Shown: positions 59,548-64,000 of the stretch, one piece after another
Layout of the letters: each line of letters starts with the position of its first letter
How positions within the stretch are numbered: the stretch's first letter is position 1
Source: Candidatus Bathyarchaeota archaeon
Lineage (GTDB): Archaea > Thermoproteota > Bathyarchaeia > Bathyarchaeales > Bathycorpusculaceae
Assembly: GCA_963702095.1 (NCBI GenBank)
Contig: OY969706.1
Coordinates: 2,784,001 to 2,848,000, forward strand
DNA length: 64,000 bases
Direction of reading: 5' to 3'
The notes under the pieces: model-generated
Databases searched by the model: none
Told to the model about the DNA's origin: nothing
The model's input: the letters and a program-made list of their open reading frames with translations, nothing else
Made by a program: the position numbers and the translations under genes

Positions 59548-60162
59548 ATGCCCTATAAATTTACTTTCGACCTGTCTACTGTTCCGCGTTTTTTCTTCAC
59601 AGAATTAACCCTGATAAGCTACCAGAGGGGCATGCATAAATCCTTCCTGAAAACCGCTAACGACTTAATCATTAAATTCCGCATCCAGGAAGCTACGGGA
59701 CTCAACATCTCCGACGCCATAGTTGTGCTCCAAGACCTAATCGACTTGCAGGCGATTAACATCTCGGAGAGACGCAGGTTCCTAGAAACCAAGAAACGAG
59801 CGCTTTTTCTACCCCATTGCTCCCGCAAATACATGGATAGCCGCTGCAAAGCTACCTTCGACGCTTCCATCCCCTCCTACACGTGCGGTCAATGCTCTGA
59901 GGATTGCCAAGTAAACAAGGCAACTCAGTACGCTAAAAGCAAAGGCTATGACGTTTTCCTCCTCCCAGGCGGCTCCTGCATACCCAAAATCCTAAAGAGT
60001 GCACGTTACGAGGGTGTGGTCGGTGTGGCTTGCGGAGAAGAAATGAAGATGATGAGTCATCTGCTGGAGAGCATGGATGTGGCTGGGCAAGGTGTGCCAT
60101 TGATTAAGAACGGTTGTGCAAACACCATTTTTAACATGGAAACCATTGCTAAAGTTCTATAG
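59548..60162 (+). CDS. DUF116 family protein
   Basis: LFLPHCSR, C..C...C, LPGGS, VGVAC, GC.NT. Confidence 0.85.
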   Translation: MPYKFTFDLSTVPRFFFTELTLISYQRGMHKSFLKTANDLIIKFRIQEATGLNISDAIVVLQDLIDLQAINISERRRFLETKKRALFLPHCSRKYMDSRCKATFDASIPSYTCGQCSEDCQVNKATQYAKSKGYDVFLLPGGSCIPKILKSARYEGVVGVACGEEMKMMSHLLESMDVAGQGVPLIKNGCANTIFNMETIAKVL

Positions 60163-60217: not shown

Positions 60218-60499
60218 ATGATTTACATGCCAGTGAAGAAAGCAGCAGCTAAACCGAAAGCTAAAACCAAACCGAAAACACAAGTAAAACCGAAAACTAA
60301 GACGAAGCCAAAAGCACAGGCGAAACCAAAAACAAAATTCTATCGGACAGGCGAAAAATGCCCCGAATCAGGACTCTACGAGCATTTCTGTAAGGAAAAA
60401 GGTGAGGGCGCACGGATTCCGCTGTCTAAATCGGAGACTTTTCCGCCTTGCCGTACCTGTGGCTCGGTTAAGTGGAAACTGATCATGTCAGCAAATTAA
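60218..60499 (+). CDS. Lys/Pro-rich repeat tail fused to YjzC-like small Zn domain
   Basis: Five KPK(A/T)xx hexads, then TGEKCPESGLY...TFPPC..C...W. Confidence 0.75.
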   Translation: MIYMPVKKAAAKPKAKTKPKTQVKPKTKTKPKAQAKPKTKFYRTGEKCPESGLYEHFCKEKGEGARIPLSKSETFPPCRTCGSVKWKLIMSAN

Positions 60500-60582: not shown

Positions 60583-61956
60583 GTGGCTAAATCTAAAATA
60601 ATAATTATCCTCTTAATAGTGGGTTTACTGGTTGCTTCAATAATAGTTTACCAACAGCAACTGTCCAACCTAGATTCATCATCAAACTCCGTCGGATTGC
60701 CAGCACCCCAAGGAAGCATTCTTTTCAAACAGGAAATCCGAGACTTCGCAAATACTATCGCGGTTGACGGCGGCAAATTTTTCACCCTGAATGACGACGG
60801 TGTGCTGTACTGTTTTGACGCCCAAAGCGGAAACCTACTCTGGCAAACCGTTGTTGACAACTGGCGTACAGGCGGATTAGTAATCAAAGATGAAATAATC
60901 TACGTTGGAGCAGTCGGCGGCGTTATAAAAACCGTGGATGAGCGCACCGGGAAACTGCTTGACTTACAGTTTGAGGCGCCTGTGAGCACTTCTTGGGGCA
61001 GTAAGAGTCCTCCCACTGCTTTCTCTGTTATTGAGGGTCGTGTGTTCGCTACCCAGACGGGTTGTAACGCCTTTAGCGCCGACACAGGTAGTCAACTTTG
61101 GATTTCTCTGCCCGTTACTATGCTTAACCCTCCTGACATGCCCTACACCGATAGCGTATGGGCGTTTAGCGATAATCTGGTTCTTGGCGCTGGAATGTAC
61201 CCTGCCGATAACACCTTTGCAGACGGATACTACCGAATCGACCCCGACAAGGGCGCTGTCATCTGGGCTATTGAATGCTCTAACATCCAAGAACCACTCA
61301 CATACCATAACAGAATAATCCTGACAAACTTTGGAAACAACATCCAAAAGTTCTGTACAAAAGTGTGTGTTGCCACCGCTTCCTCAGGAACCATCCTGTG
61401 GAGTTACGACATTGGATCACCAACTTACAAGCCAATAATCTATGGCGATTTGCTTCTACTGGTTGGCACAGACGGATATTTTTATGCCCTCAACCTCTCA
61501 AACGGTTCCTTATCCTGGAAGACACCCCTCAACAGTGACGGAACCCTCAAAGACGCGGCAGTATCCCCCATAAGAGTGGATGAACAAACCCAGAAGATAT
61601 ACTGGGCTTACGCCATCATCAGAACCAACGGCTCAGATAATAGCATAATCTACGATGGGGCATTGTGCAGCTTGGATCTGGCAACCGGCAGAAACCTTCG
61701 AACACAAACTTTCCAAAGCAACTGCACACAACCATTTTTTACAGACAGAAATCCGCTTTTGGGGTTAGCGCTGCTTAACCATACTGCCTTTTTGACTGTG
61801 CAAACTGATCTCTGGGCATTTCACAAGTCAAGTTTAGAAGTAGCTGGGATGCAGCATTTCGACCACAACCTTGTAGCACCCATTGCGGCTTATGGCAAAG
61901 TGTATGTTTCAGCAGACCTCTATGCACTGGCTTACAGCGACGCAGATGATAGTTAG
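60583..61956 (+). CDS. membrane-anchored PQQ-like beta-propeller protein
   Basis: N-terminal TM; repeated A.D..SG..LW blades. Confidence 0.85.
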   Translation: MAKSKIIIILLIVGLLVASIIVYQQQLSNLDSSSNSVGLPAPQGSILFKQEIRDFANTIAVDGGKFFTLNDDGVLYCFDAQSGNLLWQTVVDNWRTGGLVIKDEIIYVGAVGGVIKTVDERTGKLLDLQFEAPVSTSWGSKSPPTAFSVIEGRVFATQTGCNAFSADTGSQLWISLPVTMLNPPDMPYTDSVWAFSDNLVLGAGMYPADNTFADGYYRIDPDKGAVIWAIECSNIQEPLTYHNRIILTNFGNNIQKFCTKVCVATASSGTILWSYDIGSPTYKPIIYGDLLLLVGTDGYFYALNLSNGSLSWKTPLNSDGTLKDAAVSPIRVDEQTQKIYWAYAIIRTNGSDNSIIYDGALCSLDLATGRNLRTQTFQSNCTQPFFTDRNPLLGLALLNHTAFLTVQTDLWAFHKSSLEVAGMQHFDHNLVAPIAAYGKVYVSADLYALAYSDADDS

Positions 61957-62156: not shown

Positions 62157-62218
62157 TCCACAGTTTTTGACCTGCCTTATGTAGTTTTTAGGGTGTTTTG
62201 CTTGGTGTGTTATAGGTT

Positions 62219-62272
62219 AATTTTATATGATGGCAAATACATGCTTACTTTGTAAGCGCCACAAGGCTTACA
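62219..62272 (+). promoter_or_regulatory. TATA box plus palindromic operator
   Basis: TTTTATA followed by GCTTAC-ttt-GTAAGC and TGTAAGC-N8-GCTTACA (62243-62272). Confidence 0.65.
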
Positions 62273-62282
62273 TGGTGATAAG

Positions 62283-62744
62283 ATGACGCTAAGCACAGGC
62301 TACCTAACTCCCAAACAAACCCGAATCTGGGACCTCAAAGGAAACGGCATCCAAGAAGCCCACATAGCAAAACACCTAAAAATCACACGCCAAACCGTCC
62401 ACAAAGCCCTCGACACAGCCAACCTCAAAATCGGCGAAGCCCTCGAAGAAACCGCCAAAATAAACAAAATCGAAATCCAAACCCTCAACCCAACCAAAGG
62501 CTACCTCCTCGGCTACAGCGCCCACTTCAAAACCAAAGCCTTCATCACCTTCTCCGCAAAAAACGGCGTCCAAGTCTGGTACAGACACGACGGCGACTGC
62601 AAAAAATGCCGCAAACTCGAAACCTGCAGAGAAGCCCTCCTAACAGAAGCAAAAAACCGCAACTTCCTCATCCTAGACGACACAAGCAAGATACTGCCCT
62701 CCAAACTTGCAGAAGCTCTAATCGAGAAAATAACAGGTGAATAA
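62283..62744 (+). CDS. sigma70-region-4/LuxR-like HTH protein with C-terminal Cys motif
   Basis: LTPKQ..IW....G.....IAKHLKITRQTVHKAL; WYRHDGDCKKC.....C. Confidence 0.8.
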   Translation: MTLSTGYLTPKQTRIWDLKGNGIQEAHIAKHLKITRQTVHKALDTANLKIGEALEETAKINKIEIQTLNPTKGYLLGYSAHFKTKAFITFSAKNGVQVWYRHDGDCKKCRKLETCREALLTEAKNRNFLILDDTSKILPSKLAEALIEKITGE

Positions 62745-62747
62745 AGC

Positions 62748-63548
62748 ATGGGTTTATATGAAAGGTTGAGAGCATTTAAAAACTGGTGTCCTGAACCATC
62801 CACTCCGCTTAGTTCAAAGTTAAAGCAATTTTTTATTTCACCAAAACTGGCAGGCACTGGGGTCAGAAACAAGTGGGGTTATGTTCCTATCGCTGGCGGA
62901 TTCGGATTAATAGCTGCTGGCTTAGTTACTTTTATCATCCATGTTGTGCTAAACGGGGAGCTTTCTGGCACGGCGGCGGCTTATGCTCAGCGGTCGGATT
63001 TTTGGTTCTACTGGGCGCCGATGATTACCGTTTTTCTTATAGCAGGCGCGTTCGCCGCTGTTATTGGCGTATTTGTTCTAAAAAGGGTCACAAACCGATG
63101 GTTCTACGCTTTGATTGCTGGAGCGTTTATCCTAATTGCCTTTGACTCGTACTTCTTTGTGTTCAACTGGGCGAAGGATTTCATAAACATCATAGGCATC
63201 GAGAACTTCTATCCTCTTTCAGCGACCTACTTCTTCTCTGGACTAATGGCAGCGGTGTTTATGGTGGCGCTTGCAATGGTGTTGGGGCTGAAGGTTAGAA
63301 ACAAGTGGGGAATAATCACGGCAGTCGGCGGATCAGTCTTAATCCTCCTTGCCGTCTTCTTGATAGTGCTGGATGCAGCCGCCACCATCGCCATTGACCC
63401 TGTATTCAGCCTCGGTCTACGGGATTTCCGCTGGTACTTCTTCTGGCAGAATTTCGTCCCAGTTATTCCCTTTTCCTTGTTGATCGGCGGGTTCCTCGAA
63501 TTCATAGGAATATACCTGATAAGGATGGAAAAAAGCGGTGAGGCTTAG
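62748..63548 (+). CDS. six-TM membrane protein with N-terminal WCP motif and internal duplication
   Basis: LRAFKNWCPEP N-terminus; VRNKWG occurs twice. Confidence 0.8.
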   Translation: MGLYERLRAFKNWCPEPSTPLSSKLKQFFISPKLAGTGVRNKWGYVPIAGGFGLIAAGLVTFIIHVVLNGELSGTAAAYAQRSDFWFYWAPMITVFLIAGAFAAVIGVFVLKRVTNRWFYALIAGAFILIAFDSYFFVFNWAKDFINIIGIENFYPLSATYFFSGLMAAVFMVALAMVLGLKVRNKWGIITAVGGSVLILLAVFLIVLDAAATIAIDPVFSLGLRDFRWYFFWQNFVPVIPFSLLIGGFLEFIGIYLIRMEKSGEA

Positions 63549-64000
63549 GCTGGTGTTGAGGAGTCCCAGAGGAACTGGAAGTACTCCCGCGCAAACCCCA
63601 CAACGCCCACGTGATCACTCCAAATAACCAAACTCGGCTTATCCTCGCCCAAAAACAGCATCGCTTCTTTGCCGTCAGCAATAATGCCGCCACCGAACAT
63701 GTGGTCCCGGATACGCAACTCGCCAAATCCAGCGAATTTTTTGAGGAAAAGCCAATCCTCTTTTTTGCCCGCCGCCATCAGTTTAATCTTAACGGACTTC
63801 TTGACTCCGCTTCCAAGAAGGGGCTCAGCCAAAGTAATCACGGGCTTAGCAAACTCTGGCGCCGCCACAACGATTTCGACTGAAGCCTTTTTGGCCATTT
63901 CCTCCAGCTTGTTGAGGACCGCTTGTTGCCCACGCAGGATAAGCATGTCGGGGCGTTCGACTAGCTCGCGTTTCTCGTAGAGGGGCTGCAACGTTTCGGC
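63545..64000 (-). CDS. TrmB-family transcriptional regulator, C-terminal part (starts beyond window)
   Basis: ILRGQ..V...L.EM..KA..EI, GIIADGKEAML, YFQFLW. Confidence 0.75.
   Translation of the reverse strand, partial: AETLQPLYEKRELVERPDMLILRGQQAVLNKLEEMAKKASVEIVVAAPEFAKPVITLAEPLLGSGVKKSVKIKLMAAGKKEDWLFLKKFAGFGELRIRDHMFGGGIIADGKEAMLFLGEDKPSLVIWSDHVGVVGFAREYFQFLWDSSTPA

Follow-up and report, generated by a model that had tools for sequence, protein, structure and literature searches.

Near the end of the window (the 64,000-nucleotide stretch of Candidatus Bathyarchaeota DNA analyzed here), a small regulator with a helix-turn-helix (HTH), gene 1, is followed by gene 2, a membrane protein that carries a short W-C-P tag at its N-terminus. 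Regulators of the gene 1 family were found directly in front of proteins bearing such a tag across archaea, the tag proved to be independent of the body of the protein that carries it, and the operator upstream of gene 1 was conserved and co-varied with the recognition helix. The best overall explanation, which we favor with slightly more confidence than doubt, is an autorepressor that would be captured or released by its tagged membrane partner. We found no paper describing this regulator-tag module.

The two genes and their products

Gene 1 and gene 2 are separated by 3 nt, since the TAA of gene 1 ends at 62744 and the ATG of gene 2 lies at 62748 (Table 1). Gene 1 contains exactly three cysteines (C106, C109 and C115), which follow H102 in a putative metal-binding motif. 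Its structure model was confident (pLDDT 87.7), with HTH helices at residues 10–20, 25–31 and 36–60, a four-stranded sheet at 63–100, a Cys loop at 102–115 and C-terminal helices at 112–125 and 139–151. Sequence hits to the HTH were weak (Tfx TIGR00721 with an E of 4.5e-4, HTH_7 and HTH_11 with about 0.009), but the N-terminal part of the model resembled EnfR, GerE/LuxR and sigma region 4 in the structure comparison.

The closest likeness is to Tfx and EnfR (Tfx MTH0916, PDB 1NR3; EnfR TON_1525, PDB 8HNO), small archaeal proteins with a basic N-terminal HTH like sigma-70 region 4, a long helix and a C-terminal alpha+beta domain, as in gene 1. The HTH of gene 1 is of the EnfR type, aligning to 8hno_A with a Z of 7.2 and an rmsd of 0.9 over 52 residues at 27% identity, and a profile search with gene 1 retrieved 8hno (E 0.0097) and 1nr3 (E 0.099). 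Its scores were far below the cutoffs of both Tfx TIGR00721 (20.1 vs 60.25 bits, with a match limited to residues 6–53) and EnfR NF053597 (13.7 vs 260), and the Pfam search gave no TFX_C row. EnfR is a dimeric repressor acting on a pseudo-palindrome and, as its authors propose, might be controlled by a protein anti-repressor (PMC10570040); unlike for gene 1, neither a Cys loop nor a tagged membrane neighbor is mentioned for Tfx or EnfR in the part of that paper used here.

Regarding GerE (PF00196), the Pfam search with gene 1 returned no row at E<=1 and a paralog, L004, stayed below the gathering score (20.0 vs 23.5). The fold of the HTH is of GerE type, with 1fse (GerE) matched at a probability of 1.00 and a TM of 0.64 (target-normalised) and with GerE, NarL and TraR among the structure rows at Z 5.8–6.1. 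These rows also include many sigma4/anti-sigma complexes, with Z about 6–7. Unlike an ECF sigma factor, gene 1 has no sigma region 2: it has the r4-like HTH alone, scores 12.4 vs 42.9 against TIGR02937 and gave no Sigma70_r2 row in the Pfam/NCBIfam search.

The C-terminal domain was also modeled separately (residues 59–153, pLDDT 86.4). Fold searches with this model and with the whole one gave generic beta-meander rows alone (Z <= 5.5, the best row reaching 5.5 over 42 residues), Foldseek gave no match at E<=0.001, and neither EnfR nor Tfx appeared among the structure matches of the domain. In total, 410 relatives of gene 1 were found, the best 120 of the 410 with 71–100% identity, and the family comprises 275 clusters (50% identity) at E<=1e-3; a paralog in the same genome is 74% identical. 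As part of the overall explanation proposed above, and with the same slight lean in its favor, we regard gene 1 as a member of an uncharacterised archaeal family whose HTH is related to that of Tfx/EnfR.

In gene 2, hydropathy revealed six hydrophobic segments, and the two halves of the protein align with a score of 92, vs 34.9 +/- 6.7 for 300 shuffles. Its sole cysteine, C14, lies within K11-N-W-C-P-E-P, and from the positive-inside rule we expect the tail and tag to be on the cytoplasmic side. Gene 2 matched no family in Pfam or NCBIfam, the partners of the paralogous regulators had no Pfam match, and Pfam rows for ArsR or SdpI were absent at E<=1 for both gene 1 and gene 2. The first-pass annotation had described this locus as a two-gene unit with a 3-nt gap, encoding a sigma70-r4/LuxR-like HTH protein with a three-Cys C-terminal motif and a single-Cys protein of six TM helices with a duplicated VRNKWG unit, and our results agree with it on all these points.

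Table 1. Positions of the features of the regulator-tag locus in the window
Feature	Positions	Strand	Description
TATA-box-like A/T-rich element TTAATTTTATAT	62217-62229	+	Core TTTTATAT at 62222-62229; read from sequence
Operator half-site 1, GCTTAC	62243-62248	+	NCTTAC kept in 40/40 aligned promoters
Operator core palindrome, GTAAGC-N8-GCTTAC	62252-62271	+	Half-site 2 at 62252-62257, half-site 3 at 62266-62271
Likely ribosome-binding site, GGTGAT	62274-62279	+	3 nt upstream of ATG; assigned from sequence
Gene 1	62283-62744	+	Regulator, 153 aa; stop TAA at 62742-62744
Predicted recognition helix start, R36-Q-T-V-H-K41-A42-L-D..., gene 1	62388-62426	+	Helix from model; specificity positions 41-42
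Metal-type motif H102-x3-C106-x2-C109-x5-C115, gene 1	62586-62627	+	From sequence; metal binding putative
Codons of the motif, gene 1	62586-62588 (H102); 62598-62600 (C106); 62607-62609 (C109); 62625-62627 (C115)	+	
Gene 2	62748-63548	+	266 aa; N-terminal tail 1-44, six hydrophobic segments, internal duplication
N-terminal tag, gene 2 residues 1-27	62748-62828	+	W13-C14-P15 at 62784-62792; basic on both sides
VRNKWG unit 1, gene 2 residues 39-44	62862-62879	+	Half-against-half alignment
VRNKWG unit 2, gene 2 residues 183-188	63294-63311	+	Half-against-half alignment

A tag shared by unrelated membrane proteins

The survey covered 122 genes for regulators of 120 aa or more, of which 114 have three or four Cys and 8 are Cys-less. 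A Cys-tagged membrane protein follows 87 of the 122 regulators within -130 to +120 nt, all 87 among the Cys-bearing ones, while the Cys-tag pattern lies behind 38 of 1597 other ORF stops at the same loci. The remaining Cys-bearing regulators are 20 from a single clade, followed by an IKPP/bPH_2 protein without the tag Cys, one whose contig ends before any partner could fit, and six with no partner under the strict rule, of which two (L075 and L078) have a cut ORF with the tag. Among the Cys-less regulators, six of eight are followed by a Cys-less W-x-P tag. Two of the surveyed regulators, L116 and L122, have no adjacent partner. In L080, an R replaces the tag Cys. ATGA-type overlaps or 3-nt gaps are usual at the surveyed loci, and the tag type (Cys tag, Cys-less W-x-P or IKPP) follows the regulator clade. 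The pair in the window is one case of a widespread, conserved two-gene module.

All four paralogous regulators of the source genome head operons with tagged proteins. Its W/Y-C-P tags number two, both behind the two Cys-type regulators, and no tag remnant was found in the three frames upstream of the PQQ gene at 60583. Among 301 sampled genomes of the same class, 94 have the module, as do 31 of 121 genomes from a methanogen/ANME class, and it was likewise encountered in Methanomicrobiales, Geoglobus and Baldrarchaeota records. The first-pass annotation had staked its proposal on such pairs recurring across archaea and on the conservation of the WCP cysteine; the survey bears out the former, and the cysteine is retained in Bathyarchaeia-labelled, Methanosarcinales, Methanomicrobiales, Geoglobus and Baldrarchaeota records.

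Clustered by body, the 84 tagged partners form 23 unrelated groups, and the tag, with the consensus [basic]-x-x-[LFI]-x-x-[WY]-C-P-x-P, is the sole part that they have in common with gene 2. The bodies include PQQ propellers, NosD/beta-helix, bPH, DUF1673 and multi-pass proteins, and the gene 2 body has several relatives with no tag. The tag is thus independent of the protein body. A DNA or RNA element was ruled out as its identity, given that it is conserved as protein across phyla despite differing bodies and codons. Cys-Pro can also be a heme regulatory motif, which we considered as a reading of the tag.

The first-pass annotation had likened the N-terminus of gene 2 to that of methanogen DUF1673 proteins, and the link stands for the motif and for the genomic setting. 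A ‘MGWCP motif, DUF1673’ is named in a table entry of Makarova 2014 (PMC4158269), and gene 2 has a motif of this (M)GWCP type before its first membrane helix, as W13-C14-P15. Across five genomes of about 4 Mb, 30 of 30 above-cutoff DUF1673 matches lie in one array per genome directly behind its single regulator gene, the arrays begin with ...KLMGWCP..., and one surveyed partner (L082) is itself a DUF1673 member (36.2 bits vs the PF07895 cutoff of 30.4). Both types of protein thus have the W-C-P tag ahead of the first membrane helix, as the same table entry indicates for DUF1673 (PMC4158269), and both are encoded behind regulators of the gene 1 family. The bodies are different, DUF1673 being one of at least 23 tagged bodies, and membership of gene 2 in PF07895 was rejected (no Pfam row at E<=1; cutoff 30.4 bits), with 0 DUF1673 matches across the source genome.

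Of the 122 surveyed regulators, 114 retain the C-x2-C-x5-C motif, as do 53 of the 65 representative clusters in which the motif could be read. At the surveyed loci, position 102 can hold G, C, E, Q or Y instead of His, and among the representative clusters S, D, N or I as well, so that only three conserved ligands are left in many Cys-bearing clades. Regulator variants with two Cys also occur among the representative clusters. A fourth ligand of a Zn or Fe-S site might, in the Cys-type clade, come from the tag cysteine. For such a shared site, which the first-pass annotation had proposed with Zn, the replacement of His102 and the pattern of cysteines are suggestive, with the clade without the three regulator Cys also being without the tag Cys. 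This joint loss maps to one clade, and therefore to a single evolutionary event, in a quick IQ-TREE tree, which counts against the shared site, as does the IKPP clade as an exception; we rejected the co-variation as proof. A single complex prediction (regulator, gene 2 residues 1–44 and Zn) scored 0.02 vs a mark of 0.32, which we take as evidence neither way.

One could argue that regulator and membrane protein never make contact, gene 1 being an autoregulated metal or redox sensor that uses its own His/Cys site and controls the downstream membrane protein as a cargo, while the tag serves another machine (e.g. insertion, topology, turnover or its own binding of a metal or cofactor). H-x3-C-x2-C-x5-C can indeed form a full four-ligand site. 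The IKPP clade (20 members) keeps the His and the three Cys, yet the tail of its bPH_2 partner is Cys-less, and L111 has a Cys at position 102; both cases agree with a metal site for which the regulator supplies all ligands, just as confinement of the exact operator to the regulator's own promoters (see below) fits a simple autoregulated operon. This account leaves unexplained why the tag in the source genome is restricted to loci behind these regulators, why all 30 DUF1673 genes sit in arrays behind one and why tag type tracks regulator clade, and the lack of conservation of His102 in many Cys-bearing clusters also speaks against it. We consider it unlikely.

The operator in front of gene 1

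Three half-sites lie between the TATA-like TTTTATAT upstream and GGTGAT and the ATG downstream. In orthologous promoters, the TATA-like element is about 14–17 nt upstream of the first half-site, and the outer bases of half-sites 1 and 2 are complementary to each other in 37 of 40 promoters. The core palindrome is the sole part of the operator that survives in more distant orthologs. Other clades carry GTAA...TTAC palindromes of their own, placed at the TATA box or around it. GTAAGC-N8-GCTTAC occurs 2 times in the 2.94-Mb genome, vs 0.17 expected from base composition, and GCTTAC-N3-GTAAGC also occurs 2 times. All four palindrome sites are in the promoters of gene 1 and its 74%-identical paralog and nowhere else in the genome, and the number of sites is therefore above chance.

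Of the regulator columns, 41 (1.28 bits) and 42 (1.06 bits) share the most mutual information with the operator base that varies. The base is C with H-K-[A/S] in 21 of 21 cases, A with H-S-V in 5 of 5 and T with H-Q-T in 7 of 8, a co-variation that is confounded by relatedness. Since the operator is conserved and restricted to these promoters and its variable base tracks residues 41–42, self-regulation of gene 1 through it is well supported by sequence comparison, with DNA binding and repression as its presumed means. The view of the half-sites as a repressor operator, put forward in the first-pass annotation together with a genome scan for the palindrome, gained from these data: the half-sites are conserved and co-vary with the recognition helix, and both matches of the scan are at promoters of Cys-type regulators.

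The position of the operator also bears on a second alternative, in which the tag recruits the regulator into a membrane-tethered complex that is active on DNA, with the partner as a sensor and no sequestration, as in the models of ToxR/ToxS and CadC. The synteny and the tag apply equally to such a complex, and the variable ectodomains of the partners are sensor-like. An archaeal operator downstream of or around the TATA box is in a repressor position, though, and a soluble protein of 153 aa with a dimer-type palindrome needs no tether to reach DNA. We hold this arrangement to be quite improbable, although the data fit a switch in either direction. In a third alternative, a 5' leader would control translation or stability by folding GUAAGC-N8-GCUUAC or an alternative hairpin with half-site 1. 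The middle half-site can pair with either neighbor, and in both alternative helices the outer pair occurs in every one of the four Watson-Crick forms as well as G-U. We find this reading very improbable: each helix has one variable pair, the variable base tracks recognition-helix residues 41–42, which an RNA hairpin does not predict, and the palindrome of distant orthologs and of other clades borders on the TATA box or surrounds it, which puts it wholly or in part upstream of the transcript.

A proposed membrane switch and its relation to known systems

In the explanation that we favor, the gene 1 product would be a dimeric, self-repressing transcription factor that binds GTAAGC-N8-GCTTAC and the extra half-site, where transcription of its two-gene operon is expected to start. 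Its C-terminal domain, with the C-x2-C-x5-C loop, would bind the N-terminal cytoplasmic tag, and by capturing or releasing the regulator the membrane protein could make expression of the operon track its own state. With coupled 1:1 synthesis, plain titration would lead to constitutive expression unless the availability of the tag is regulated.

This logic can be likened to that of SdpR/SdpI and of anti-sigma factors. In Bacillus subtilis, an autorepressor gene is followed about 3 bp downstream by the gene of a multi-pass membrane protein, and SdpI sequesters SdpR at the membrane on a signal, so that the operon is derepressed (PMC2910880). Operon order, tight coupling and self-regulation are as in gene 1 and gene 2. 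By contrast, SdpR is of ArsR type and gene 1 of LuxR/r4 type, SdpI proteins form one homologous family binding through an internal loop whereas the partners here have unrelated bodies and a short N-terminal tag, and no toxin ligand is known for the present module.

With ECF sigma and anti-sigma factors the module shares a co-transcribed and often self-regulated pair with a region-4-type HTH in the DNA-binding partner, and the tagged proteins, like anti-sigma factors, combine a cytoplasmic N-terminal segment with at least one helix and an outside part that varies greatly. To our knowledge, archaea use no sigma factors. The binding segment here would be a tag of about 20 residues and not an anti-sigma domain. 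Zinc-binding anti-sigma factors (ZAS) carry H-x3-C-x2-C, a type of motif that is here on the DNA-binding protein and not on the membrane protein. WhiB-like (Wbl) and EndoIII-type [4Fe-4S] sites have the form C-xn-C-x2-C-x5-C, with the same C-x2-C-x5-C spacing as gene 1, and Wbl proteins act on sigma region 4. In these, a fourth, distant Cys completes the cluster, whereas here another protein would have to provide it. With its three Cys, gene 1 differs from Wbl proteins, which have four in one chain; it gave no Whib row in Pfam, and no sequence or fold relation to Wbl/EndoIII was found.

A bolder form of our explanation, held tentatively as a possibility and not as an expectation, is that a portable tag of about 20 residues plugs any membrane protein into a dedicated autoregulator, with the tag Cys completing an inter-protein site of Zn or [4Fe-4S] type. 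If so, archaea would have a counterpart of anti-sigma signaling whose tether is itself a switch that responds to metal or redox state, and the DUF1673 ‘dark matter’ arrays of methanogens would be accounted for as well; a bridging metal site, if real, would be an unusual signaling principle. The pairs of helix residue and operator base (K41 with C, S41 with A, Q41 with T) are, in turn, a small candidate specificity code.

DUF1673, known only as an unexplained expansion, gains from the module a hypothesis at the level of function, and the module is open to testing in the genetically tractable Methanosarcina. We know of no sigma/anti-sigma pairs in archaea and of few routes from their surface to transcription. 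With one conserved regulator joined to propellers, beta-helices, PH domains and multi-pass proteins by one short tag, the module looks like an undescribed link from the cell surface to gene control in archaea.

The regulator gene and its membrane-protein neighbour

The HTH regulator encoded by gene 1 has exactly three cysteines, all within the loop H102-D-G-D-C106-K-K-C109-R-K-L-E-T-C115. The product of gene 2 starts with a basic tail (…R-A-F-K-N-W-C-P-E-P-S-T-P-L…) that holds its sole cysteine, C14, followed by six hydrophobic segments. Its two halves are internal duplicates: they align with a score of 92 (shuffles, 34.9 +/- 6.7), and each contains VRNKWG (residues 39-44 and 183-188). On rereading the sequence, we found the first-pass annotation to be correct in every item regarding genes, cysteines, duplication and half-sites.

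Features of the module and its surroundings (window coordinates)
Feature	Position	Strand	Remarks
DUF116 protein	59548-60162	+	E 9.3e-28; looks unrelated to the regulator/tag module
93-aa lysine/proline-rich protein	60218-60499	+	weak YjzC-like C-terminus (E 2.7e-4, under cut-off); looks unrelated to the module
PQQ-type beta-propeller membrane protein	60583-61956	+	PF13360, E 3.6e-23
TATA-box-like element TTTTATAT	62222-62229	+	upstream of gene 1
Half-site GCTTAC	62243-62248	+	upstream of gene 1
Half-site GTAAGC	62252-62257	+	upstream of gene 1
Half-site GCTTAC	62266-62271	+	upstream of gene 1
GGTGAT	62274-62279	+	between last half-site and gene 1 ATG
Gene 1	62283-62744	+	153 aa; stop TAA 62742-62744
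Gene 2	62748-63548	+	266 aa; start 3 nt past gene 1 stop
Convergent gene	63545-64000	-	ends at 63545, its stop overlapping the gene 2 stop (63546-63548); continues past window end; weak TrmB-regulator C-terminal match (PF11495, E 0.015, under cut-off)

No curated family claims gene 1. Tfx (TIGR00721, 20.1 bits) and EnfR (NF053597, 13.7 bits), its closest relatives by descent, resemble it in the HTH only and do not reach their cut-offs of 60.25 and 260 bits; several HTH models match near E 0.01. A confident structure model (pLDDT 87.7, from a 27-sequence alignment) comprises an HTH (helices 10-20, 25-31 and 36-60), a four-stranded sheet (63-100), the Cys loop and two helices. In structure comparisons, the modelled HTH matched EnfR 8hno_A (Z 7.2, rmsd 0.9 over 52 residues), as well as GerE/LuxR domains and sigma region 4, many of the latter in anti-sigma complexes. 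No convincing solved relative emerged among the structure matches of a separate model of the C-terminal domain (pLDDT 86.4). The regulator family counts 410 relatives in 90% clusters and 275 clusters at 50% identity (E<=1e-3), and is present in 94 of 301 sampled genomes of this genome's class, with up to seven copies each; among named relatives, the nearest are Bathyarchaeia-labelled MAGs.

Gene 2 matched no family in Pfam or NCBIfam, DUF1673 included (Pfam profile search), and has only 20 relatives. Three of these have the tail, while several lack it and start near VRNKWG, so the tail behaves as a separable module. The propeller protein encoded just upstream of the regulator gene, and not after it, shares 40% identity along its whole length (E 5e-114) with the tagged partner at L006, the closest ortholog locus. 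It bears no tag, starts directly at a membrane helix and has no upstream tag remnant in any frame.

A portable tag behind the regulators

The first-pass annotation had called for a gene-neighbourhood survey of such pairs. We pooled 80 loci (one genome per species), the four paralogs of this genome and 40 loci from a class survey. After removal of L005, which duplicates L001, and of four regulator fragments shorter than 120 aa, 122 regulator genes remained. A Cys-tagged partner was defined as a membrane protein that starts within -130 to +120 nt of the regulator stop, carries [W/Y/F/R/A]-C-[P/R/K/Q/S] among residues 1-45 and has a hydrophobic helix following this motif. Three or four loop cysteines were found in 114 regulators, and in 87 of these a Cys-tagged membrane protein comes next, which bears out the expected co-location. 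Behind another 20 (the IKPP clade) lies a different partner without Cys, one regulator gene ends at a contig edge, and six (L075, L078, L080, L081, L116 and L122) have no partner under the strict rule. Among these six, the tag at L075 and L078 sits on an ORF interrupted by a stop or frameshift, L080 reads G-W-R-P at the tag position, L081 is broken, and L116 and L122 are true orphans. Six of the eight regulators devoid of loop cysteines precede G-W-[I/L/V/F]-P tails; at L004 an ABC transporter comes first and the tagged protein after, and L107 has no partner. As a control, we applied the rule to the 1597 other ORF stops of these loci and obtained 38 matches (2.4%), some of them further tagged genes within arrays. 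At most loci, the partner start overlaps the regulator stop (ATGA) or comes 3 nt later.

The partners range from 65 to 870 aa, and their bodies are PQQ-type propellers, NosD/beta-helix, bPH, MG3-like domains, DUF1673 or nothing known. The 84 tagged partners of at least 140 aa fell into 23 body clusters without BLAST similarity between them. Between unrelated bodies, identity is 26% in the 19 residues around the Cys (a value including three positions constrained by the search pattern) vs 6% in a control window further in. Judged from these alignments, the conserved part of the partners is the tag and not the protein body.

DUF1673 is one tagged body among many. The likeness of the WCP start to DUF1673, suggested in the first-pass annotation, was right: the table of Makarova et al. 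gives DUF1673 with an MGWCP motif (PMC4158269), and DUF1673 genes lie directly behind regulators. At L082, a Methanoculleus-labelled locus, the partner belongs to DUF1673 (36.2 bits vs a cut-off of 30.4), and in the genomes of L082 and L085 all three DUF1673 matches directly follow a regulator-family match, one of which is a 40-aa remnant. At G301:C102:3929-4419, a DUF1673-like gene adjoins a 40-residue regulator remnant (only model positions 113-151), possibly a decayed copy of the module. The class holding the Methanosarcinales-labelled locus L069 has the regulator in 31 of 121 genomes, mostly as a single copy. Five ~4-Mb genomes in this class have 30 DUF1673 matches above cut-off between them, and all 30 belong to tandem arrays, one per genome and 2 to 9 genes long, that immediately follow the sole regulator gene. 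Most ORFs of the three arrays read start with …K-L-M-G-W-C-P…; in two that have long GTG starts, the first 50 residues reach no further than the …Y-I-K-K-L that precedes this motif.

This genome encodes four paralogous regulators. The one with 74% identity has the Cys loop, and the next protein combines …L-I-D-Y-C-P-Q-P-Q-M-P-L… with one helix. Two others, at ~35% identity, lack all three cysteines. One of them precedes a row of six small membrane proteins (L003 1950-3415; C1:2681060-2684731) that start with ...F/I-R/K-G-W-[I/F/L]-P-K-E/D-P; the row resembles the DUF1673 arrays without the cysteine. The other is the first gene of an operon (L004 1474-3433; C1:278986) that continues with an ABC transporter ATPase and permease; a G-W-L-P-Q-D-P-tagged protein is encoded further downstream. 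All seven such W-x-P starts of the genome, and its only two W/Y-C-P starts, are located behind the four regulators.

The Cys loop and a possible shared metal site

C-x2-C-x5-C is present at 114 of 122 loci. Of the 150 representative clusters taken, 75 cover the region and 65 have a readable motif, which is C-x2-C-x5-C in 53. This spacing is that of the Wbl and EndoIII [4Fe-4S] sites, and H-x3-C-x2-C is the signature of zinc anti-sigma factors. Sampled clades with G, C, E, Q or Y instead of His102 all retain a Cys-tagged partner, and ~20 Cys-bearing representative clusters have Y, E, G, S, D, N, I or Q at this position. Since the His is not universal, many lineages would be left with three conserved regulator ligands plus one invariant tag Cys.

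Regarding the shared Zn site first proposed for the pair, we consider it possible, at less than even confidence, that the tag Cys and the regulator loop form a bridging metal site, with Zn and Fe-S undistinguished by sequence. Partners of the Cys-less regulators keep the W and P of the tag, with the Cys replaced by I, L, V or F. In a quick tree, however, these regulators form one clade (support 96), next to the IKPP (100) and Cys-tag (86) groups, so the joint loss is one event, which counts against the idea. Also against it, the 20 regulators of the separate IKPP clade (L086-L105) keep the His and three cysteines (…H-D-S-Y-A-G-K-x-C-P-x-C-P-x-E-x-E-C, with a four-residue insert), and the protein directly after them, always a ~240-aa bPH_2 (PF03703) membrane protein, starts with …V-I-K-P-P-x-x-K-V-x-S-G-K-I-F-K-P and has no Cys. 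At L111 a Cys replaces His102, which fits a metal site complete within the regulator.

The operator and a model for the module

NCTTAC-N3-GTAAGN-N8-NCTTAC is kept gap-free in 40 promoters of closer orthologs (44 matches, 42 distinct, leaving out L050 and L052 with the second palindrome only). More distant orthologs keep GTAAGC-N8-GCTTAC alone, right after the TATA box. L044 and L047 carry two abutting copies there (GTAAGC-N8-GCTTAC GTAAG[T/C]-N8-GCTTAC), unlike the one and a half sites of the window. A genome scan, also suggested at first pass, found the 6-8-6 palindrome twice (0.17 expected) and the 6-3-6 palindrome twice, with no copy outside the two Cys-type regulator promoters. Other groups have palindromes of the GTAA…TTAC type of their own: CTGTAAACA-N6-TGTTTACAG in the Cys-less clade, GTAAA-N2-TTTAC plus a third site in the IKPP clade, and GTAAAG-N8-CTTTAC in the L118-L124 group. 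The last encloses the TATA-like element (GTTTTATA or similar at L118, L119 and L124), so a bound dimer would cover the TATA box.

Half-site variation is restricted to the outer base, which changes in concert among sites (sites 1-2: GC 19, AU 7, UA 6, CG 4, GU 1, other 3; sites 2-3: CG 20, AU 6, UA 5, GC 2, GU 2, UG 1, other 4). Across 39 loci (L066, a regulator fragment, was dropped), this base tracks regulator residues 41-42 in the predicted recognition helix: C goes with H-K-[A/S] (21/21), A with H-S-V (5/5) and T with H-Q-T (7/8), and G with mixed residues (5 loci). Of 57 columns tested, 41 and 42 share the most mutual information with the base, a value inflated by relatedness. The signal is located where a specificity residue would be expected, and we infer that the regulator binds its own promoter. 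Archaeal repressors generally act from operators at or after the TATA box, a position that makes the regulator most likely a repressor.

We propose that gene 1 encodes a repressor of its own operon whose C-terminal domain would recognise the cytoplasmic tag of the co-encoded membrane protein or proteins, and that operon expression may depend on whether the repressor is captured at the membrane or released. A regulator accompanied by mere cargo, the proteins making no contact, seems to us rather unlikely, and an active complex tethered at the membrane less likely still. Repeats acting as an RNA leader are very improbable, as a hairpin would not predict an operator base that tracks residues 41-42.

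By logic, the proposed repressor-tag module is closest to SdpR/SdpI (PMC2910880) and to sigma/anti-sigma pairs, although neither is homologous. We found no published account of the pairing in the main texts of the open-access literature searched. For the WCP-type motif and arCOG06827, only the Makarova table (PMC4158269) was relevant. A LuxR-solo survey (PMC5413776) does not contain 'neighbor', 'cysteine' or 'Bathyarchaeota', its Tfx and Methanosarcina passages being silent on this pairing, and the Tfx, C-terminal domain and homolog passages of the EnfR paper (PMC10570040) name no membrane neighbour. The novelty lies in the regulator family, in a portable tag common to unrelated membrane proteins, in the arrays and, possibly, in a metal site formed between two proteins. 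As the exact operator occurs in this genome only at the regulators' own promoters, the main output of the module may be the tagged proteins themselves.
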